Of a stretch of DNA of 64,000 bases, positions 5,434 through 42,413 are shown one piece after another. The notes below the pieces were generated by a model. The model saw nothing but the letters and a program-made list of their open reading frames with translations, searched no databases and was not told the origin of the DNA. Position numbers and translations under genes: made by a program. The DNA comes from Caulobacteraceae bacterium (lineage in GTDB: Bacteria > Pseudomonadota > Alphaproteobacteria > Caulobacterales > Caulobacteraceae): the NCBI GenBank assembly GCA_019748095.1, contig JAIEQA010000008.1:10625-74624 (forward strand), in the 5' to 3' direction. Numbering within the stretch: the first letter of the stretch is position 1; the number at the start of each line of letters is the position of its first letter.

Positions 5434-5461
5434 GGCAGACAGGATAGCGGGAGACGATAGG

Positions 5462-7057
5462 TCAGAACAGGTCGCCCTGTGACACGATTGCGGCTTTGGG
5501 CTTGTGGACAGGCTTCGGCCGGGCGGGGCCTTCGCCCTCGATCTGCGCGCCCCGCGATCCGTCCGGGAAGACGAGGGTGACGGACTGACCGGGGGACAGG
5601 GCGGCAGCGGAGGCGATCATGGTGCCGGTTTCGTCGTCGATGCGGGCGAAGCCGGCCCTGGGCCGTTTGGGGTCAAGGGTGGCCAGCGCCCGGGCGAGGG
5701 CAGCGAGGCGGGTGGTGGCGCGTTCCGCGATCAGGGGGCGTACCCGCTCGAACCTCGCTGACAGAGCGGTCAGGTCGATCTTGCGTTGGTCCTGGCGTCG
5801 TTGGATCGGGGCAAGGCTGAGCCGGCCGGCGACACGCAGCAGGCGGCGTTCATGGGCGGCGGCATTGGCCCCGAGCCCCGAGGCCAGTCGGGCGGACCAG
5901 GCCTCCAGCCGCGCCACCCTCTGTTCGACCGCGCGGTCCAGCAGGGCCGGGGCGAAGCGGCCGCCGACTGCGATCAGCCGGCGGTGGTGAAGTTCGGTGT
6001 TGCGGCTGAGGCCCGAGGCCAGACGGCTGGAGGCGTGGTCCAGCCTTTGCTGGGCGAGGGCGACCAGCTCCTCGGGGCGGGCCGGAAGGCCCCGGGCGAC
6101 GGCGCGCAGGCGGACGCGGCGGTCCTCCAGCAACCGGGCCCCGGCGCGGTCGAGGCGACGCTCCAGATCGGCGACGAAGGCGCGCAGGTCGGGCAGAACG
6201 GGGGTGGCAAGCTCGGCCGCCCCGGTGGGGGTGGGGGCGCGGCGGTCGGAGACGAAATCGATCAGGGTGGTGTCGGTCTCGTGCCCCACGGCCGAGAGGA
6301 TCGGGATCCGCGCGGCGGCGACCGTGCGGGCCAGGCCTTCGTCATTGAAGCACCACAGGTCCTCGACCGAGCCGCCGCCGCGCGCGACGATCAGCAGGTC
6401 GGGGCGCGGAATGGGCCCGTCGGGCGTCAGGGCGTCGAAGCCCCGGATGGCGGCCGAGACCTGGCCCGCGGCGGCGTCGCCCTGGACGACGACGGGCCAG
6501 ACGATGACGCGGCAGGGCCAGCGCTCGGCGATCCGGTGCAGGATGTCGCGGATGACCGCGCCGGTCGGGCTGGTGATCACCCCGATGGTGCGGGGATAGA
6601 GGGGCAGGGGGGTCTTGCGGGCGGCATCGAACAACCCCTCGCCCGACAATTTGACCTTGAGCCGCTCCAGCTGGGCCAGCAGGGCCCCGGCCCCAGCCGC
6701 CTCCATCGATTCGATCACGATCTGGTAGCTGGACCGGGCCGGGTAGGAGGTGATCTTGCCGGTGACGATGACCTCCAGCCCCGTCTCGGGCTGGACGCCG
6801 AGGCCGCGGGCGGAGCCCTTCCAGACCACGCCGTCGATCGCCGACTTGTCGTCCTTGAGCGTCAGATAGATGTGGCCCGAGGCGTGGCGGTTGACCTTGG
6901 AGATCTCGCCGCGCAGCCGGACATGGCCGAACCGGTCCTCCAGCGTGCGCTTGAGGGCGAACGACAGTTCCGAGATGGACAGGGGCGGGTTGTTGTCGCG
7001 CGGGGGCGCGGCCGGTTCCGGGTCGGCGGGGCCCGCGAAGACATAGTCGTCAGTCAT
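5462..7057 (-). CDS. xseA: Exodeoxyribonuclease VII large subunit
   Basis: 531-aa ORF. N-terminal OB fold ([44 protein letters not shown]), catalytic core ([41 protein letters not shown]) and a long helical C-terminus. Confidence 0.95.
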
Positions 7058-7122
7058 CGGGGCACTGTAGCGGGCGAGGGGGCGTGCGGAAACCGCCGCA
7101 ATGAGGCTATACCGGTCGGATC

Positions 7123-7278
7123 ATGACCGATGAACGCACGCCGCCCCGCGATGACGAGGACCCCCGCGAGCGCGATCTGGCACGCCGGGGCCGGGCCCCC
7201 GGCGGGAACCCCTGGATGATCGTAATCCTGATCGTGCTGCTGGCCGCAGCGGTTTATACGGCGTCGGCCCTGCTCTGA
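7123..7278 (+). CDS. Hypothetical small membrane protein (51 aa; below the ORF-track size cutoff)
   Basis: ATG 7123 to TGA 7276-7278 in the xseA-purD spacer. Charged N-terminus followed by one hydrophobic helix (WMIVILIVLLAAAVYTASALL). G/C-rich third positions. No homology recognised. Confidence 0.3.
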   Translation: MTDERTPPRDDEDPRERDLARRGRAPGGNPWMIVILIVLLAAAVYTASALL

Positions 7279-7326
7279 CCGCCGGCGGGTCTTGACCCAC
7301 CGGGTTCGCGCCGTCATTGCGCGGGC

Positions 7327-8604
7327 ATGGATATCCTGCTGGTAGGGTCGGGCGGCCGTGAGCATGCCCTCGCCTGGAAAATGCGTCAGTCGCCGCTGGT
7401 CGACCGGCTGTTCTGTGCGCCCGGCAATCCCGGCATCGCCCGGGTGGCCGAATGTCTGCCGGACGTCCGGGCGGATGACGCCGAGGGGCTGGCCAAACTG
7501 GCGCGGGAGCTGAAGGTCGGGCTGGTCGTGGTCGGGCCGGAAGTGGCGCTGCAGGCCGGGCTGGCCGATCTGCTGAACGCGGCCGGCATTCCCTGCTTCG
7601 GGCCCAGCGCCAAGGCGGCGCAGTTGGAGACCTCCAAGGCCTTTTCCAAGGCGTTTCTGGCCCGCCACGAAATTCCGACGGCCCACTACGGTGTCTATGA
7701 CCGGGTGGCGGATGCCCGGGCGGCGCTGGACGTGTTCCGGCCGCCCTATGTGATCAAGGCCGACGGGCTGGCGGCCGGCAAGGGGGTGGCGATCAGCCCG
7801 GACCGGGCCGATGCCGAGGCCGAGATCGAGCGGATGCTGGGCGGCCGGTTCGGCGCGGCCGGAGCCCGGGTCGTCATCGAGGAGTTCATGGAGGGCGAGG
7901 AGGGCTCGCTGTTCGCCCTGTGCGATGGCCAGCGTGCCGTCCTGTTCGGCGGGGCCCAGGACCACAAGCGGGCCTTCGACGGGGACCTGGGCCCGAACAC
8001 GGGCGGCATGGGGGCCTATTCACCCGCACCGGTGTTCGACGAGGCCCTGGTCACGGCGGCCGACCGTGACATCGTGCAACCGACCCTGAAGGCGATGGCC
8101 GCCGAGGGCGCGCCCTATCGCGGCGTGCTCTACGCCGGGCTGATGGCCACGGCCGAGGGGCCCAAGGTGGTGGAGTTCAACGCCCGCTTCGGCGACCCGG
8201 AATGCCAGGTGCTGATGATGCGGATGGCGGGGGACATCGTGCCCTATCTGCTGGCCTGTGCCCGGGGCGATGTCTCGCGCCTGCCGGCCCCGGAGTTCCG
8301 GCCCGAGACGGTGATCTGTGTGGTCATGGCGGCGCGGGGCTATCCCGACAGCCCGATCGAGGGCTCGATCATCCGCGGGGCGGATCAGGATTTCGGACCC
8401 GATGTGCAGGTCTTCCATGCCGGCACCCGGCGACGGGATGACGGGACGCTGGTGGCCGCCGGGGGACGGGTGCTGAGCGTCTGCGCGGCCGGAGCCGATA
8501 TCGTCGAGGCGCGCGAGCGGGCCTATGCGGCGGTGCGCAAGATCGACTGGCCGGGCGGGTTCAACCGGACCGACATCGGCTGGCGGGCGCTGGAGAGGGA
8601 TTGA
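7327..8604 (+). CDS. purD: Phosphoribosylamine--glycine ligase
   Basis: MDILLVGSGGREHALAWKM N-terminus, ATP-grasp core and a full-length 425-aa match to PurD architecture. Confidence 0.97.
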   Translation: MDILLVGSGGREHALAWKMRQSPLVDRLFCAPGNPGIARVAECLPDVRADDAEGLAKLARELKVGLVVVGPEVALQAGLADLLNAAGIPCFGPSAKAAQLETSKAFSKAFLARHEIPTAHYGVYDRVADARAALDVFRPPYVIKADGLAAGKGVAISPDRADAEAEIERMLGGRFGAAGARVVIEEFMEGEEGSLFALCDGQRAVLFGGAQDHKRAFDGDLGPNTGGMGAYSPAPVFDEALVTAADRDIVQPTLKAMAAEGAPYRGVLYAGLMATAEGPKVVEFNARFGDPECQVLMMRMAGDIVPYLLACARGDVSRLPAPEFRPETVICVVMAARGYPDSPIEGSIIRGADQDFGPDVQVFHAGTRRRDDGTLVAAGGRVLSVCAAGADIVEARERAYAAVRKIDWPGGFNRTDIGWRALERD

Positions 8605-20282: not shown

Positions 20283-20978
20283 GGCCCGATATGGCGGACC
20301 GGGGGGCGGGCCGCAACGGCGGGGCCATGCGGACCCGGAAAACTGTGTCCGGATGGTCCGGATCGCACCTCGGGACCGGTGTGCATCAAAGGGCCACCGG
20401 AAGGCATGGTGGGTAAGGCCAGGCGAATTTTTTGGTGTGCCGGACGAGCGCGTCCTGGGTTCAGGCCTCGGGTCGCTGTGCCGGCGGCACCGGTGTCCGG
20501 CGGACATCTGTGGCCGCAGTCGATTCGCTTTTTTGGGCCCCAAGCAGTTTCACGGTCCGACACATTCGAGACGTTTGTGTGAAAGGGTCATACGACCGAG
20601 CCTGACTCTCCTCTGCCCTTCGCTGGACGCAAAACGCAGGGGCTGCGACCTCGTCCACTTTTGCGGGGGAGGATCAGTCTGGCATGCCCGGCACACCGTC
20701 TGCTCCACCCTGTGCCGGTTCGGGACAACAGTGAAGCTTTGTGGGACATACTGGTCCGCCGCCTCCCCGGTTTCCGGCTCCGGAGCAGAGGTGCATGAAC
20801 CCATGAACGGGGAAGGAATCGACCTTTTCAGCCTCCGGCCGTGGGAAAACGGCCCGCCCGGATAGGTTGACGGCTGGATTCAGCGTTGTTCTGACACGTT
20901 GGTACGCCGCCAGGGCTCTTTCGGCCCCACCCTTGCACTGCCCTGCCTGCCCATCACGGGCATGTCAGGAGCCCCATA

Positions 20979-21593
20979 GTGAAGTCCATCTCTCTTCTTT
21001 CAGCCGTGGCGGCCCTCGCCCTCGTCGCCGGTGCTGCCGAGGCGCAAACGATCAACTCCGGCCAGCTTCTCCAGGGCAATGTGCGGGCCCAGCTGAACGC
21101 CGTGGTCAGCACCGTCCGGGCGGACCTCTCCGCCACTGCGGCTGCCATCGGCAACGGCTTTGGCGCGGACGGCACTACCGGGCCGGCGATCAACAACATC
21201 CAGCTTTTCTCGGGCAACGCCACGTCGATCCTGAACAGCGTCGTCCTGGACGTGAATGGAGACGTGAGCCAGCTCTCAACGGCTATCGCCAACCGGTCCA
21301 GCATAAGCACAGATGCCATGGAGGGCCGGATCAACAACCTGCAGAATGCAAACAACGGCCCGACAGCGATCCTGAACACGGCGGTCGAGAACGTAGGCGG
21401 CGACATGTCGGCGACCGCCGCTGCGATCAGCAATGCGGCGTCGATCAATTCGCGCCTCTCGATGGTGAACTCGGGCCAGAACAACGAGGCCGACGTCACC
21501 GCCTCCGTCGAGTCCCTCGTGCGCAATGTCGCGGGCAAGACGACGATCACGGCGGGTGCCATCGGCAACGTCGTCTCCGTCACCGGTTTCTGA
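20979..21593 (+). CDS. Secreted four-repeat curlin-like protein (first gene of the holdfast-anchor-like locus)
   Basis: GTG 20979 preceded by AGGAG 7 nt upstream. Signal peptide MKSISLLSAVAALALVAGAAEAQ. Four ~45-aa repeats, each ending in an A-I-(G/A/S)-N motif (AAAIGNGFG, STAIANRSS, AAAISNAAS, AGAIGNVVSVTGF). N/Q/S/T/A/G-rich, no Cys. Confidence 0.7.
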   Translation: MKSISLLSAVAALALVAGAAEAQTINSGQLLQGNVRAQLNAVVSTVRADLSATAAAIGNGFGADGTTGPAINNIQLFSGNATSILNSVVLDVNGDVSQLSTAIANRSSISTDAMEGRINNLQNANNGPTAILNTAVENVGGDMSATAAAISNAASINSRLSMVNSGQNNEADVTASVESLVRNVAGKTTITAGAIGNVVSVTGF

Positions 21594-21669
21594 TCCGTCG
21601 AGGAGCCGGGCGGTGTCCTGAAGGGCGCTGCGGTTTCCGCCTCAAAAGCCTCACCAGGACATATCCCCA

Positions 21670-22086
21670 ATGAAACGCTCTCTCTTCGCGGCCACGATTC
21701 TGGCCGGTCTCGCTCCCGCAAGTCTCGCCCTGGCCCAGTCCGTCTCAGGATCAGGTCTCGGGACCATGGAGTCCGGCTATGGGGGTGCGGGCCGGGTCGC
21801 CCACCAAGCCTACAATCCGAGCACACGCGACGCGAACGGCAACCGTCTGATCGTCAACGGCCGGATCATTGACCCGCGGGGGCAGGCGTTCTCGAGCTAT
21901 AGCAGCAGCGATGCCGGCACCGGTGCAGCCTACGCCCAGAGCGGAGCAGGCGGCGGCGGCACGACCACCAGCACAGCCATTGGCAATCTGCTGACGGTGC
22001 AGGTCACCGGCAGCAACAACGTCGTGGTCCTGAACGCACGCCAGACCAATAACGGGACCATCATCGCCCGGGCGAACGCCCAATGA
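21670..22086 (+). CDS. hfaA: HfaA-like holdfast anchor / curlin-repeat protein
   Basis: Signal peptide MKRSLFAATILAGLAPASLALAQ. C-terminal TSTAIGNLLTVQVTGSNNVVVLNARQTNNGTIIA resembles a CsgA/CsgB curlin repeat. Lies directly upstream of, and ATGA-coupled to, a CsgG-like gene. Symbol assigned by context, not by a search. Confidence 0.6.
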   Translation: MKRSLFAATILAGLAPASLALAQSVSGSGLGTMESGYGGAGRVAHQAYNPSTRDANGNRLIVNGRIIDPRGQAFSSYSSSDAGTGAAYAQSGAGGGGTTTSTAIGNLLTVQVTGSNNVVVLNARQTNNGTIIARANAQ

Positions 22087-22949
22087 GCCCGCGTCTGATC
22101 TTGCCGCTGGTCCTCGGATCCCTCGCGCTCGTGGCCGGTCCCGCCGGGGCCGATCCACGGGGCGGTGCGCCCGTCACGGCCAATCCGTCGTCCTATTCCC
22201 CCGCGCTGAGATGCCTGGCGGCCCGCGCCGGATGGTGGGACGGGGCGGCTCCACGTGTCGCCGTCGGCCGGATTACCGACATGACCGGCCGGAACGAGTT
22301 CTATAGCGGGACTCCCGTGCCCCAGGGCGCGTCGCTGTTCGCGATCACGGCGCTCAGACAGGCCGGAGTGCCGGTCGTTGAAAGGCTGGACAACACCGTC
22401 GCCGAGATCGAGCTGAACTATGCGCGCCAGCACCTGCTCTCCGACACGCCGGAGCAGGCGGGTCAGAGCGCGGACAATTTCCGTCCCATCCTGGCCGGCC
22501 AGATCGCGGGTTCGCGCTACTATATCGTCGGTGGGGTGACCGAGTTGAACTACAATATCGCGTCCTCGGGCCTTCAGCTCCAGGGCGGCCAGGCTGCGAA
22601 CGATGACAACAATGCCCTCGGGGGCGCGATCGGCCGGTCGCGCTTCGTTCTGAATGTCGCCGTCGATCTGCGGCTGGTCGATACCCGGTCCCAGGAAGTG
22701 GTCGAGACCGTCACGTTCCAGAAGCAGGTCGTCGGTACCGAGGCGGGGCTCAACGTCCGCGGAGTCAATCTGCGCGGGAGTGACGATACGGCGACCGGGC
22801 GATTGAACGGCGGGACGGGGGCCATGGAGCCGATCCAGTTCGCGGTTCGGTCCCTCGTCGAGCGCGGGGTCTTCGAGCTGGTGGCGGGGCTCCAGTCGGG
22901 CGACGCCCGCGGGGCCTGCCTGCCGATCGGTCCGGGAGCCCCGGCATGA
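22083..22949 (+). CDS. hfaB: CsgG/HfaB family secretion-pore protein, paralog 1 (signal peptide without a lipobox Cys)
   Basis: RVAVGRITDMTGRNEF..GASLFAITALRQAGVPVVERLD and GSRYYIVGGVTELNYNI fit the CsgG family core. N-terminus MSPRLILPLVLGSLALVAGPAGA has no Cys. Which paralog is the true HfaB orthologue is uncertain. Confidence 0.7.
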   Translation: MSPRLILPLVLGSLALVAGPAGADPRGGAPVTANPSSYSPALRCLAARAGWWDGAAPRVAVGRITDMTGRNEFYSGTPVPQGASLFAITALRQAGVPVVERLDNTVAEIELNYARQHLLSDTPEQAGQSADNFRPILAGQIAGSRYYIVGGVTELNYNIASSGLQLQGGQAANDDNNALGGAIGRSRFVLNVAVDLRLVDTRSQEVVETVTFQKQVVGTEAGLNVRGVNLRGSDDTATGRLNGGTGAMEPIQFAVRSLVERGVFELVAGLQSGDARGACLPIGPGAPA

Positions 22950-24088
22950 ACCGGTTCAGATCCGGGGTCGCCCTGGTCGCCGCGGCTGCAGTTCTCGGGG
23001 GCTGCGCCAGCACAGCCTATGATCCACAGACGGGCCTCTATGCCCGTCCGGGCGGCGGTGCCCCCGCCACCGATAACGAGACGCCCTATTCGGAGCCCCT
23101 GCGCTGTCTGGCCTCTGCGGCGAGCGAAGCTCAGCGTGTCGCTCCGCGACTGGCTGTGGGCGACATCGCGGACCTGACCGGACGCCGCGACCTTCAGACC
23201 GGCCGGATCGTCAGCCAGGGTGCAGCCCTGTTCGCGGTCACGGCCCTGACCCGGGCCGGAGTGCCGACCGTCGAGCGCCTGGATCCGGGCGTGTCCGAGA
23301 TCGAGCGACAGTACGCCCAGGCTCACCTGCTCTCGGATACACCGGAGCAGGCAGGCCAGAGCCGCGAGAATTTCCGGCCGGTCTATGCCGGAGAGATCGC
23401 CGGCTCGCGCTATTATGTCGTCGGAGGCGTGACCGAGCTGAACTATAATATCCGTTCGCGCGGTGTGGATCTCGCCGCCGGAGCCGTGCAGATCGTCGGG
23501 GCCAAGGGTGGCTTTACCGGCAGCGACTACGTCATGAACGTCGCCATCGACCTGCGCCTGATTGACACGATTTCCCAGGAGGTGGTCGCCACCGCCTCCT
23601 ACCAGAAGCAGATCGTCGGCCATGAGATTCGCGCCGGTGTGTTCAACTTCATGGGTGGGACCCTGTTTGATCTCACCGCCGGCGGCAGCGCCATGGAGCC
23701 GGTCCAGCTGGCTGTGCGGACCGCCGTCGAGCTTGGTCTCTATGATTTTGTGGCCGATCTCTACAGCCTGCCGCGCGACCGCTGTCTGGCGGGTGCTGAA
23801 GTCGGGGACCCCAGCCTGCTCGTTCGCCGCCTGACCGCGCCTCCCGCTGCGGTGGTAGCGCCCGAACCGCCTCCGGTCCTCGCAGCAGCGCCGCCCCCCG
23901 CCGCAGAGCTCCACGCTCCGCCGCCTCACGTCCATGCCCCGGCCCCGCGCCCCTATGCACTGCCCCCGCGGAACTACACCCCGTCCCCACAGGCCTACGA
24001 CCCTTCATCCTCGACATCGGCCCCGTCGGCACGTCCTCGCTCGGTGATCGAGCCCGGCGCCTGGCGGCTGCGCACGGGAGGGCGCTGA
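22946..24088 (+). CDS. CsgG/HfaB family lipoprotein, paralog 2, with a ~100-aa Pro-rich C-terminal extension
   Basis: Lipobox MNRFRSGVALVAAAAVLGGC. The core is clearly paralogous to the preceding gene (RLAVGDIADLTGRRD, HLLSDTPEQAGQS, GSRYYVVGGVTELNYNI, MEPVQLAVRT). The tail is PPAAVVAPEPPPVLAAAPPPAAELHAPPPHVHAPAPRPYALPPRNYTPSPQAYDP. ATGA overlap with paralog 1. Confidence 0.75.
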   Translation: MNRFRSGVALVAAAAVLGGCASTAYDPQTGLYARPGGGAPATDNETPYSEPLRCLASAASEAQRVAPRLAVGDIADLTGRRDLQTGRIVSQGAALFAVTALTRAGVPTVERLDPGVSEIERQYAQAHLLSDTPEQAGQSRENFRPVYAGEIAGSRYYVVGGVTELNYNIRSRGVDLAAGAVQIVGAKGGFTGSDYVMNVAIDLRLIDTISQEVVATASYQKQIVGHEIRAGVFNFMGGTLFDLTAGGSAMEPVQLAVRTAVELGLYDFVADLYSLPRDRCLAGAEVGDPSLLVRRLTAPPAAVVAPEPPPVLAAAPPPAAELHAPPPHVHAPAPRPYALPPRNYTPSPQAYDPSSSTSAPSARPRSVIEPGAWRLRTGGR

Positions 24089-24302
24089 GGCGGCCCCGAC
24101 GACGGCTCTGCGGGGGCGGGCGCGGGGTGTGCTGCCGCACGGGCTCGACGACTGTCTGCTTTCGGGCCAGGTGCCGGTGTCGAGATCTGGCGCTATTCGC
24201 AAGTTGATGGGGGCGGCCGTACACGGCTGCTCCTGAACCGAACAGACCTCCGCCCCGTCTTCCTGGTGCCACGGCCATGCCCCGTGCCTGCGGGAGTTTC
24301 GG

Positions 24303-27288: not shown

Positions 27289-27606
27289 TCACTCCTCGAA
27301 CATTTCGCGCAGGGTGGCGAGCAGACCGGTCAGATGTTGCGGCTGAAGTGCGCCGATGCGGCGAAGCATGCGTGAGCGATCCACGGAACGCATCTGGTCC
27401 GGCAGGAGGCGGCCCACCCGGCCCGCGAAGGTGATCGCCGGGCGATAGCGTGAAGGCAGGCTGCCGGTGGTCATGGGTACGATGACGTGGACCGGCAGGT
27501 GGCTCATGTCATCCGGGGAGACGACGACACACGGGCGGGTCTTGCGAAGCTCATGCCCGACGACCGGGTCGAGCCGGACCAGCCAGACGTCGCCGCGCCG
27601 GATCAT
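27289..27606 (-). CDS. mazF: Type II toxin-antitoxin system PemK/MazF family toxin
   Basis: MIRRGDVWLVRLDPVVGHELRKTRPCVVVSPDDM is the canonical MazF/PemK N-terminus. 105 aa. 4-nt overlap with the antitoxin gene. Confidence 0.9.
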   Translation of the reverse strand: MIRRGDVWLVRLDPVVGHELRKTRPCVVVSPDDMSHLPVHVIVPMTTGSLPSRYRPAITFAGRVGRLLPDQMRSVDRSRMLRRIGALQPQHLTGLLATLREMFEE

Positions 27607-38100: not shown

Positions 38101-38721
38101 GTGTCCTGCGCCGTGACCGACGCCGCCCGAACCGATCGCGTCACCGATCCGCTGGACGCCAGCCGGGCCGAGATCGCGCGGCTGAAGGCCGAGGTCGAGG
38201 CGCTGCGGGCGCGGACCCTGGAACTGGAACAGCGGGCCGCGGCGGCCGAGGCGGCGGCGGACCACGATGTCCTGACCCCGGTGCTGAACCGGCGGGGGTT
38301 CGTCACCGCCATGAGCCGCAGCATGGCCTATTGCACCCGCTACAAGGTGCCGGCCGTCCTGCTGTATCTGGATCTGGACGGATTCAAGCGGGTCAATGAC
38401 ACCCTGGGCCACGCCGCCGGGGATGCGGCCCTGGTGCGGGTGGCCGAGCTTCTGCTCGAGAATGTGCGGGCCACCGACGCCGTGGGGCGTCTGGGCGGGG
38501 ACGAGTTCGGCCTGCTGCTGCTGAACGCCGGGCCGGACGAGGGCCGGGAGAAGGCCGACGGGCTGAAACAGGCGCTGGAACAGGCGGCCTTTCTGTACGA
38601 AGGGCAGGCGGCGTCTCTGGGTGGATCGTTCGGGGTGCGGGCCTTTGCCGGGCAGCCGGACGCGGAGACCTGGCTGGCCGAGGCCGATGCGGCCATGTGG
38701 GTGCGCAAGCGCGGGCGTTAG
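38101..38721 (+). CDS. Diguanylate cyclase (coiled-coil + GGDEF domain) with an RxxD I-site
   Basis: N-terminal coiled coil (IARLKAEVEALRARTLELEQRAAAAEAAA). GGDEF domain with an intact RLGGDEFGLLL, and RATD five residues upstream (I-site). GTG start. Confidence 0.85.
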   Translation: MSCAVTDAARTDRVTDPLDASRAEIARLKAEVEALRARTLELEQRAAAAEAAADHDVLTPVLNRRGFVTAMSRSMAYCTRYKVPAVLLYLDLDGFKRVNDTLGHAAGDAALVRVAELLLENVRATDAVGRLGGDEFGLLLLNAGPDEGREKADGLKQALEQAAFLYEGQAASLGGSFGVRAFAGQPDAETWLAEADAAMWVRKRGR

Positions 38722-41561: not shown

Positions 41562-41774
41562 GGGCGTTGTCCCGGTGTGCGAGGCCCGGGCGAAGCCGGG
41601 CGCTGGATACGACGGCGCCCGACCTTTCGGCCGGGCGCGATGATCGGGATATAGGCGCATTCGGAGCAAAAGAAAACGCCGTCTGTCCGTGCCATACAGC
41701 CAAGGTTCATACTGACTGCTGGATATGATGATATCGCGGCGGTCAGACGCCTTGAGAAAAAGTTGGAGGGTACC

Positions 41775-42413
41775 ATGAAGACGATCGCCTTTTTCGCCGC
41801 CGGAGCTGTTCTCGCCTCGGCCGGTCTCGCCGCCGTGCCGCAGTCGGCCGAGGCCCAGTCGCGCGCCGCGCCGCGTGGCAGCTATGCCCAGAGCTGTTCG
41901 GGGGCCTATGTGAACCAGGGGCGGCTGTATGCGGATTGCCGCGACCGCTCCGGCAATCGGCGCCCGACGTCGATCGAACTGGCCCCTTGCTCGTCCAGCG
42001 ACATCGGCAACGACAACGGCCTGCTGGTCTGCCAGGGCGTGCGCGGGGAGTATGAGCGCGGCAACAACGGCGGTGGCAACAGCGGCGGGGGTTGGGGCGG
42101 CAACAACAACGGCGGCGGCTGGGGCGGTGGCAACAACGGTGGCGGCAACGGTCGCGACACCATCACCGTCTATCGCGACGCCAATTTCGGTGGCGGGTCC
42201 CAGACCTTCCGCGGCGAGGTCTACAATCTCGTCAGCAGCGGCTTCAACGACACCATCAGCTCGATGGAGTTCCGCGGTGTCTGGGAGGCCTGTACCGATG
42301 CCGAGTTCCGCGGCCAGTGCCAGGTCTTTACCGAGAATGTGCGCAATCTCAGCCGCTTTGGCATGAACGACAGCATCTCGTCGCTGCGTCCCGTGCGTCG
42401 CAACAACTGGTAG
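41775..42413 (+). CDS. Secreted protein: CVNH-like half-domain + Gly/Asn-rich linker + beta/gamma-crystallin domain
   Basis: ATG 41775 preceded by GGAGGG. Signal peptide MKTIAFFAAGAVLASAGLAAVPQSAEAQ. SCSGAYVNQGRLYADCRDRSGNRRPTSIELAPCSSSDIGNDNGLLVC resembles one cyanovirin-N (CVNH) repeat. Linker is GNNGGGNSGGGWGGNNNGGGWGGGNNGGGNG. Two Greek-key motifs: YRDANFGG...NDTISSMEF and TDAEFRGQ...NDSISSLRPV. Confidence 0.75.
   Translation: MKTIAFFAAGAVLASAGLAAVPQSAEAQSRAAPRGSYAQSCSGAYVNQGRLYADCRDRSGNRRPTSIELAPCSSSDIGNDNGLLVCQGVRGEYERGNNGGGNSGGGWGGNNNGGGWGGGNNGGGNGRDTITVYRDANFGGGSQTFRGEVYNLVSSGFNDTISSMEFRGVWEACTDAEFRGQCQVFTENVRNLSRFGMNDSISSLRPVRRNNW

Follow-up and report, generated by a model that had tools for sequence, protein, structure and literature searches.

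The closest described relatives of the locus considered here are the holdfast-anchor genes of Caulobacter crescentus and Hirschia baltica, which encode HfaA, HfaB and HfaD together and HfaE elsewhere. HfaA and HfaD form multimers resistant to sodium dodecyl sulfate (SDS) that anchor the holdfast, and HfaB is a CsgG-like lipoprotein on which HfaA and HfaD depend for their stability and for localisation at the surface, and which is suspected of roles beyond the export of HfaA, HfaD and HfaE; the tethering of the holdfast polysaccharide to the cell is still an open problem in the field (10.1101/2022.07.20.500906). The organisation hfaA-hfaB-hfaD has been stated to be conserved in all Caulobacterales genomes analysed (10.1101/523142). 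The DNA analysed here (hereafter the window) is a stretch of 64,000 nucleotides (nt) from the metagenome-assembled genome (MAG) of a Brevundimonas-like Caulobacteraceae bacterium (GCA_019748095.1, contig JAIEQA010000008.1), and it contains four genes, g1 to g4, that encode the same protein families in a different arrangement. With a rough probability of 0.6, we read them as an intact holdfast-anchor-like cassette of a second type, i.e., a self-contained paralogous version of HfaA/HfaB/HfaD. We refer to this layout as type II and to the canonical hfaA-hfaB-hfaD operon as type I. The features of the cassette, in window coordinates and with protein lengths in amino acids (aa), are the following:

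20621-24123, + strand: type II hfa cassette, the sole block in common with Brevundimonas sp. R86498 (91.2% nucleotide identity, 3506 nt, by blastn)
20923-20936, + strand: sigma54-type -24/-12 promoter-like box, GG-N8-TTGC, here cGGccccacccTTGCa, 56 nt upstream of the g1 start
20979-21593, + strand: g1, 204 aa, GTG start with GGAG 8 nt upstream; short HfaD-family protein
21670-22086, + strand: g2, 138 aa; HfaA paralogue
22083-22086, + strand: ATGA stop/start overlap of g2 and g3
22083-22949, + strand: g3, 288 aa; short HfaB, a CsgG-fold paralogue
22946-22949, + strand: ATGA stop/start overlap of g3 and g4
22946-24088, + strand: g4, 380 aa; long HfaB, a CsgG-like lipoprotein

The listing of open reading frames (ORFs) gives exactly the coordinates at which an earlier note on this DNA had placed four same-strand genes, and the two ATGA overlaps named there are real because g2/g3 and g3/g4 each share 4 nt comprising an ATG start and a TGA stop, with ORF coordinates and codons in agreement. 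Third-position GC contents of 0.77-0.85, together with ratios of nonsynonymous to synonymous substitution (dN/dS) of 0.07-0.33 against the R86498 orthologues (purifying selection on all four), mean that g1 to g4 are real genes under selection. Both g1 and g2 are free of Cys, rich in A, N, S, G and T, and carry N-termini that by inspection resemble signal peptides, much as had been described. The long leader of the earlier note needs to be divided in two: g1 is indeed separated from the divergent pmbA-like gene by a long gap, about 358 nt of which lie within the cassette, while the transcribed leader is probably short, since the box 56 nt ahead of g1, taken as a putative promoter, would leave about 30 nt.

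Automated annotation at NCBI names g2 HfaA (MBX9614188.1) and both g3 and g4 HfaB (g4 being MBX9614190.1, in the series MBX9614188-190), and the R86498 counterparts of g2 to g4 are likewise named HfaA, HfaB and HfaB. These three proteins are present in a collection of 15 billion proteins; the 204-aa g1 is not found there. In R86498 the g1 orthologue (locus L001, 10001-11074) is annotated at 357 aa, with a start placed in the non-coding leader, 153 codons too early, and g1 is probably mis-started or unannotated in the source MAG as well.

Both g3 and g4 belong to the HfaB family, with 339.1 and 370.4 bits against NCBIfam HfaB (NF037935, cutoff 300), and the CsgG cores that had been seen in them are borne out by 48.1 and 54.4 bits against Pfam CsgG (PF03783, cutoff 20.8). 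Neither protein is CsgG proper, as against the corresponding NCBIfam model (NF011731, cutoff 505) g4 reaches 26.8 bits and g3 is unmatched. The two genes are about 70% identical in nucleotides, and a self-blast of the window found no duplications beyond this pair and two ABC-transporter paralogues. By sequence, g4 matches the solved CsgG structures with an E-value of 1e-6. The AlphaFold2 model of g3 (predicted local distance difference test, pLDDT, of 75.2) gives a near-full-length match to CsgG by Foldseek (6l7a, E 6.8e-13, probability 1.0) and keeps a long beta-hairpin (strands 180-200 and 206-228) at the site of the CsgG transmembrane hairpin. No match of g4 to the HfaD model (NF037936) was obtained, and a second CsgG paralogue does occupy the place where hfaD would be expected, as the earlier note had claimed.

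The differences between g3 and g4 are at their ends. After its signal peptide, g4 has a lipobox, AAVLGG followed by CAST (LGGC; motif inspection only), and its C-terminus is a Pro-rich linker followed by a terminal [DE]P..W[RH] motif that is common to type I HfaB; the canonical HfaB is likewise a lipoprotein with a Pro-rich tail and this terminal motif. The N-terminus of g3 (MSPRLILPLVLGSLALVAGPAGADP) is a signal peptide with no lipobox Cys. This division extends to the type II loci described below, where a lipobox is present in every long HfaB copy and the combination of lipobox and [DE]P..W tail occurs in the long copy only, with the short copies of Brevundimonas having no lipobox and ending directly after the core with no tail (the short copies in L011 and Asticcacaulis have a Cys, which falls inside the hydrophobic signal-peptide core and whose status as a lipobox residue is ambiguous). 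The short and long hfaB genes overlap by 4 nt in 8 of 10 distinct type II loci, the window included (the others are L001, L005, L007, L011, L013, L015 and L019; L012 agrees with one choice of start, and the start in L017 is uncertain).

The second gene, g2, matches NCBIfam HfaA (NF037934) with 99.1 bits against a cutoff of 50 and covers positions 1-114 of the 115 in the model, which settles the check on this model that had been proposed for it; the protein contains one TAIGN motif. None of the outcomes that the earlier note had listed as fatal at the sequence level was found, these being g3 and g4 without a CsgG or HfaB match, g2 without an HfaA match, and a clean HfaD match for g4.

The first gene had been described as encoding an "extra" four-repeat protein. 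It does have four repeats, each of about 46 aa and closing with a (T)AAAI(G/S/A)N motif, and it ends in ...VTGF, with both its length and its C-terminus kept in all type II loci. Judged by its relatives, however, g1 is the HfaD-family component of the locus in short form. Membership of Pfam PF27277 (HfaD) was assessed by proxy, via annotated homologues and hhalign: PF27277 is precomputed on 9 of 9 detectable g1 homologues, including the 86%-identical R86498 orthologue (P0001), and a profile of 10 g1-type proteins matches the N-terminal half of a canonical HfaD profile (12 proteins) with a probability of 89% and an E-value of 2.2e-6. A full HMMER search places g1 in a family of 354 clusters at 50% identity, the commonest architecture of which is a single unit of about 200-235 aa. 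In another lineage (L090, below), a short protein of this family stands in the position of the canonical hfaD, behind hfaA and a CsgG-like gene. On these family matches, the cassette holds all three canonical Hfa component types plus one extra HfaB.

The AlphaFold2 model of g1 (pLDDT 85.7, predicted template-modelling (TM) score, pTM, 0.79) is all-beta, and its 12 strands follow a strict 4 x 3 arrangement. Its nearest solved folds by Foldseek are the FapC amyloid (9u4u_A, E 1.8e-4), the CsgA fibril, and right-handed beta-helix lyases and adhesins, and from the model g1 is predicted to be a secreted beta-solenoid-like fibre or anchor subunit. Other identities were considered for this protein. 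The C-terminal motifs that define HfaE are PHPASQV, CNERSLLR and DGGVG (10.1101/2022.07.20.500906), and this identity was rejected since g1 has no Cys and this motif set is absent in all six frames of the window. An outer-membrane beta-barrel, as 12 strands and a C-terminal Phe might suggest, is unlikely because the mature protein has 3 aromatics, all of them Phe, and its fold neighbours are solenoids. The g1 profile yielded spurious coiled-coil matches only when compared with PDB sequences.

Compared with the canonical hfa operon, then, the cassette is similarly co-oriented and tightly coupled with a sigma54-like box upstream, and it differs in several respects. The order is D-like, A, B, B in place of A, B, D with a single hfaB, and one of the two HfaB paralogues is non-lipidated and tail-less. 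Its HfaD-family member has 204 aa and no Cys, whereas the canonical protein has about 415 aa and a CxxC-bearing C-terminal half. The cassette proteins are approximately 41-46% identical to their type I counterparts and fall in separate clades, and there is no HfaE in the window.

The curli system of Escherichia coli is a more distant relative. Both have a CsgG-fold outer-membrane secretion component, and the cassette encodes Cys-free, N/Q/S/G-rich repeat proteins predicted to be beta-solenoid-like. It has two CsgG paralogues where curli has one, with the low CsgG equivalog score given above, and lacks CsgE, CsgF, CsgD and any match to the curlin repeat. The repeat of g1, at about 46 aa and three strands, is also longer than the curlin repeat, which is about 22 aa. 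The curlin-like repeats that had been claimed for g1 and g2 did not survive comparison with the model, as neither protein matches PF07012 at E <= 1, and the candidate identity of g1 and g2 as curlin-repeat proteins was rejected at the level of hidden Markov models (HMMs). The absence of CsgD, CsgE and CsgF equivalents, also noted earlier, agrees with the Pfam survey, which found no csgE, csgF or csgD among the roughly 44 window proteins scanned. The Fap system of Pseudomonas is brought in by the g1 model, for which FapC is the best Foldseek match and which has three predicted strands per repeat; the identity is 13% with TM-scores of 0.20-0.24, there is no Fap operon or FapF-type barrel, and the exporter in the cassette is CsgG-like.

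To place the cassette among hfa loci, we combined loci from context look-ups with those obtained when GTDB species representatives were scanned with an HfaA alignment, a scan in which 80 of 114 matches were kept. The genome scan used exact degenerate patterns, the loci were annotated with HMMs built for this analysis, and the trees of HfaB and HfaA were calculated by neighbour-joining. The synteny comparison suggested in the earlier note gives the same four-gene layout in other Brevundimonas genomes, and its reading of an hfa-type locus with a non-textbook layout is upheld, with HfaA and two HfaB models passed in the order short HfaD-like gene, hfaA, hfaB, hfaB. Type I, found in about 70 loci, consists of hfaA (about 144 aa), hfaB (about 338 aa) and hfaD (about 415 aa, with longest ORFs to about 490 aa). 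Type II begins with a g1-type gene (204-213 aa), which is followed by hfaA and by two hfaB genes, first a short one (282-296 aa) and then a long one (316-430 aa). In addition to the window, it was found in at least 11 distinct loci of Brevundimonas, Asticcacaulis and unclassified MAGs. The Brevundimonas hosts are sp. R86498, a "B. vesicularis" assembly, a "B. subvibrioides" assembly, B. mediterranea DSM 14878 and sp. ASV9; two unclassified MAGs and three Asticcacaulis genomes are further hosts.

The trees separate the two types. Type I HfaB is monophyletic (71/71), as are type II short HfaB (11/11, the S clade) and type II HfaA (11/11), the last being about 41% identical to type I HfaA. The short and long HfaB of type II together form one clade of 22 that spans Asticcacaulis and Brevundimonas, which means that the hfaB duplication predates the split of these two genera. 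Both types of locus are present together in B. mediterranea DSM 14878, an isolate (type II L012, type I L027), and in the MAG LE19-114.1A (type II L011, type I L046). In B. mediterranea the type I locus scores 142, 418 and 447 bits on the HfaA, HfaB and HfaD models, and the type II locus scores 87 bits for HfaA, 381 and 383 bits for its two HfaB and 20 bits for HfaD. The fact that the types coexist, each with its own scores, means that type II, as far as the sequences allow this to be judged, is a distinct paralogous cassette and not a reshuffled hfaABD operon, and the separate clades across genera, together with an identity of 40-42% between type I and type II HfaA of the same genome, point to an old paralogy and not to a recent rearrangement.

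Variants of these layouts were also observed. Some type II loci have an extra g1-like HfaD-family gene (310-328 aa, 38.6 bits on NCBIfam HfaD) on the opposite strand directly after the long hfaB, and this gene is absent from the window:

L005, 9207-10139, - strand: extra HfaD-family gene
L006, 1347-2279, - strand: extra HfaD-family gene
L012, 9511-10497, - strand: extra HfaD-family gene
L014, 9501-10433, - strand: extra HfaD-family gene

A third layout, in two Caulobacter MAGs (L084, 6231-9743; L085, 902-2871), starts with a short HfaD-like gene (201 aa) and continues with hfaA and one hfaB only, whose product, at 292 aa, is lipidated, has no tail and is sister to the type I clade. In L084 this hfaB is followed by a hybrid histidine kinase/response regulator gene, and no exact sigma54-like box was found in the upstream regions of L084 and L085. 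Further away, L090, a metagenomic contig from an uncultured alphaproteobacterial lineage (5442-7660), has hfaA, a 349-aa CsgG and then a 219-aa short HfaD-family protein, and L091 from a Rubrimonas MAG of the Rhodobacterales (5825-7579) has a 106-aa ORF, a 269-aa CsgG and then a 192-aa short HfaD-family protein, so that hfa-like modules extend beyond Caulobacterales. These two loci resemble the cassette in pairing a short (192-219 aa), four-repeat HfaD-family protein with a CsgG-like gene, with HfaA in L090 too, and differ from it in having a single CsgG/HfaB copy and the HfaD-family gene last and not first; in this comparison the HfaD-family proteins P0004 and P0005 bear N-terminal cysteines, unlike the Cys-free g1. 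Tandem HfaD-family genes (326 and 325 aa) were seen on freshwater metagenome contigs (L002, 6623-8978, with the same genes in L003 and L004), with no CsgG or HfaA gene within 8 kb and with housekeeping genes and a recombinase/AbiE island as neighbours.

The region upstream of g1 contains the only element that is conserved across all type II loci, namely the sigma54-like box. In an alignment of six type II upstream regions, GG-N8-TTGC is the sole invariant element besides the ribosome-binding site. Of 13 loci with a g1-type gene in first position, 11 have the box at -47 to -59, among them 11 of 11 type II loci (it is at a like position in L001, L005, L007, L011-L015, L017 and L019), compared with a chance expectation of about 0.1 per 260-nt region. 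In type I, about 31 of 72 loci have the box in the near-perfect form TGGCACGCGGGTTGCTTG, as an exact match at approximately -39 to -63 relative to hfaA (in one locus at -85). Given that the sigma54-like box is found upstream of both locus types, the two operons probably share control. Scans of the region for sigma70 promoters, terminators and Rfam families returned no Rfam family, no sigma70-like promoter and no clear terminator.

The borders of the cassette are best seen in comparison with R86498 (L001), the copy of the closest relative, where the flanks on both sides are wholly unrelated to those of the window. The window cassette has a pmbA/tldD-family gene on one side and a MAPEG gene on the other, in a neighbourhood of housekeeping genes. 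In R86498 it adjoins an island with resolvase, HNH and Mrr genes (L001, 13944-21074), and in "B. vesicularis" it is near a DDE transposase (L005, 10504-11258). The GC content is 0.61-0.69 within the cassette and 0.70-0.75 in the upstream flank. No transposon-like ends were found, and alignments of the cassette edges gave no terminal inverted or direct repeats. Taken as sequence context, these borders fit an accessory module that is occasionally relocated or transferred.

For the working of such a cassette we infer, by analogy with the described systems, a secretion route, a partnership of g3 and g4, polymerisation, and a link to the holdfast. In this mechanism, g1 to g4 would form one transcription unit, with the conserved sigma54-like box about 55 nt upstream of g1 and with g2, g3 and g4 translationally coupled through the ATGA overlaps. 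The four-rung, Cys-free, beta-solenoid-like g1 and the HfaA paralogue g2 would be exported by Sec and would then pass the outer membrane through a channel of CsgG type. This channel would be formed around g4, a lipoprotein with all parts of the canonical HfaB architecture. The short paralogue g3 would most likely join g4 in a mixed ring, as it has a CsgG fold, is nearly always co-encoded with g4 and usually has a coupled start; alternatively, it may partner the channel from the periplasm. Once at the surface, g1 and g2 would form a stable multimeric, amyloid-like anchor tethering the holdfast polysaccharide, in the way of HfaA and HfaD in C. crescentus. In the source organism this may be the sole anchor or an additional one.

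A number of observations weigh against this reading. For g1, the score on the NCBIfam HfaD model is 22.6 bits (positions 2-183 of 374) compared with a cutoff of 100, and the protein is without the HfaD C-terminal half that bears the invariant C-x-x-C (C347, C350), so that at 204 aa and with no Cys it is not a canonical HfaD of about 400 aa with a C-terminal Cys pair. The low TM-scores of its model mean that the "amyloid-like solenoid" reading holds at the level of fold class only. A profile match between g1 and HfaA has a probability of 40% and comes in part from the signal peptide, and a CsgB/CsgA-like templating relationship is therefore not supported; the candidate role of HfaA as a CsgB-like one-repeat nucleator of g1 was set aside for this reason. 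For g3, we know of no precedent for a non-lipidated CsgG-family protein that reaches the outer membrane, and the title of PDB 4uv2 describes the non-lipidated CsgG of E. coli as a soluble pre-pore. Pfam survey, HMMs and motifs found no hfs, hfaE or canonical hfaD in the window, and nothing in the neighbourhood of the cassette ties it to the holdfast. No paper describing a type II locus or a second type of hfa locus was found in the literature searched. As to the promoter-like box, Janakiraman and Brun reportedly found in 1999 that transcription of C. crescentus hfaA is independent of sigma54 despite a sigma54-like sequence, for which reason no dependence on RpoN is claimed here.

The alternative that fares best concerns g3 only, and is that this protein is a soluble periplasmic ring or adaptor (CsgE-like or a pre-pore) which gates or chaperones the substrates of the g4 channel. 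It would account for the fact that g3 has a signal peptide and yet lacks both lipobox and tail, it has a counterpart in the pre-pore just mentioned, and it would supply a function in a cassette without a CsgE or CsgF homologue. The g3 model, however, retains the long hairpin and aligns over nearly the whole CsgG chain, and g3 is above the HfaB equivalog cutoff. We consider the periplasmic role a real possibility, if one short of even odds. The boldest reading, in which short and long HfaB form an obligate hetero-oligomeric CsgG-type ring (a heteromer that would have no precedent in the CsgG channel family) dedicated to the export of the four-rung HfaD-like solenoid and HfaA, with the 3.5-kb unit acting as an anchor cassette exchangeable between Caulobacterales and serving as a second tether for the holdfast or another adhesin, is a speculative extension that we think rather unlikely in this full form.

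Similarly doubtful is the possibility that the cassette is the only holdfast-anchor operon of its organism, i.e., a lineage-specific rearrangement of hfaABD in which hfaD was shortened and moved upstream and hfaB was duplicated, with the canonical job retained, much as the earlier note had proposed. It has in its favour that the cassette has every Hfa component type, that the window contains no type I locus or full-length HfaD, and that for R86498, Asticcacaulis currens, Asticcacaulis sp. W401b and Brevundimonas sp. ASV9 the scan recovered type II only. The apparent absence of type I from R86498 carries little weight, as the scan relied on exact patterns with 80 of 114 matches kept, and the finding that no canonical HfaD named R86498 is among the matches listed in the alignment search refers to the best 120 of 643. 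A rearrangement within one lineage is also difficult to reconcile with the presence of both types in B. mediterranea DSM 14878 and one MAG, with type II HfaA and HfaB clades that are separate across genera and differ from type I within the same genome to the extent given above, and with closely related genomes that carry the cassette in unrelated contexts.

Least probable of the alternatives is an independent curli-like secretion system of common ancestry with Hfa that serves a surface fibre or biofilm-matrix protein and not the holdfast, as would suit the absence of hfs, hfaE or polar-development genes near the cassette, its patchy distribution in unrelated contexts with some copies beside a resolvase or transposase (typical of an accessory trait), the pairing of CsgG with a short HfaD-family protein outside Caulobacterales in the Rubrimonas MAG, the HfaD-family genes found without CsgG nearby and a g1 fold class like that of functional amyloids. 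Against it, HfaA is reportedly among 11 proteins that are exclusive to Caulobacterales (10.1101/2022.07.20.500906) and each type II locus includes a bona fide paralogue of it, the sigma54-like box at a like position upstream of type I and type II suggests shared control, and the named type II hosts are all in stalked, holdfast-forming genera.

Read as a holdfast-anchor-like cassette, type II is a recurring variant of a known adhesion system and not a new kind of system. Its families, fold classes and likely biology are already known, so the finding refines the existing picture; g2 to g4 are already named by automated annotation, and the locus type is undescribed in the literature searched. The naturally split HfaB, with lipid anchor and tail on one copy and only the core on the other, offers a ready case of separation of function, and the minimal 204-aa HfaD-like protein should be easier to approach by structure work than the HfaD of about 415 aa. 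B. mediterranea DSM 14878 and other strains that carry the two loci together allow redundancy to be compared with specialisation. The assumption of a single hfaABD locus (10.1101/523142) will lead to mis-assignment of orthologues in Brevundimonas and Asticcacaulis, and automatic annotation adds to this by naming both paralogues plainly "HfaB" and leaving the HfaD-like gene "hypothetical", with an over-called start in R86498. The conserved box, set against the sigma54-independence reported for C. crescentus hfaA, merits re-examination in Brevundimonas.

Several other genes of the window look accessory as well. A MazF/PemK toxin gene is at 27289-27606 (- strand) and a gene for a beta/gamma-crystallin-domain protein at 41763-42413 (+ strand). 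A GGDEF diguanylate cyclase (38101-38721, + strand) and an EAL phosphodiesterase (706-1980, - strand) are possible inputs to adhesion through cyclic di-GMP, and both are unlinked to the cassette.

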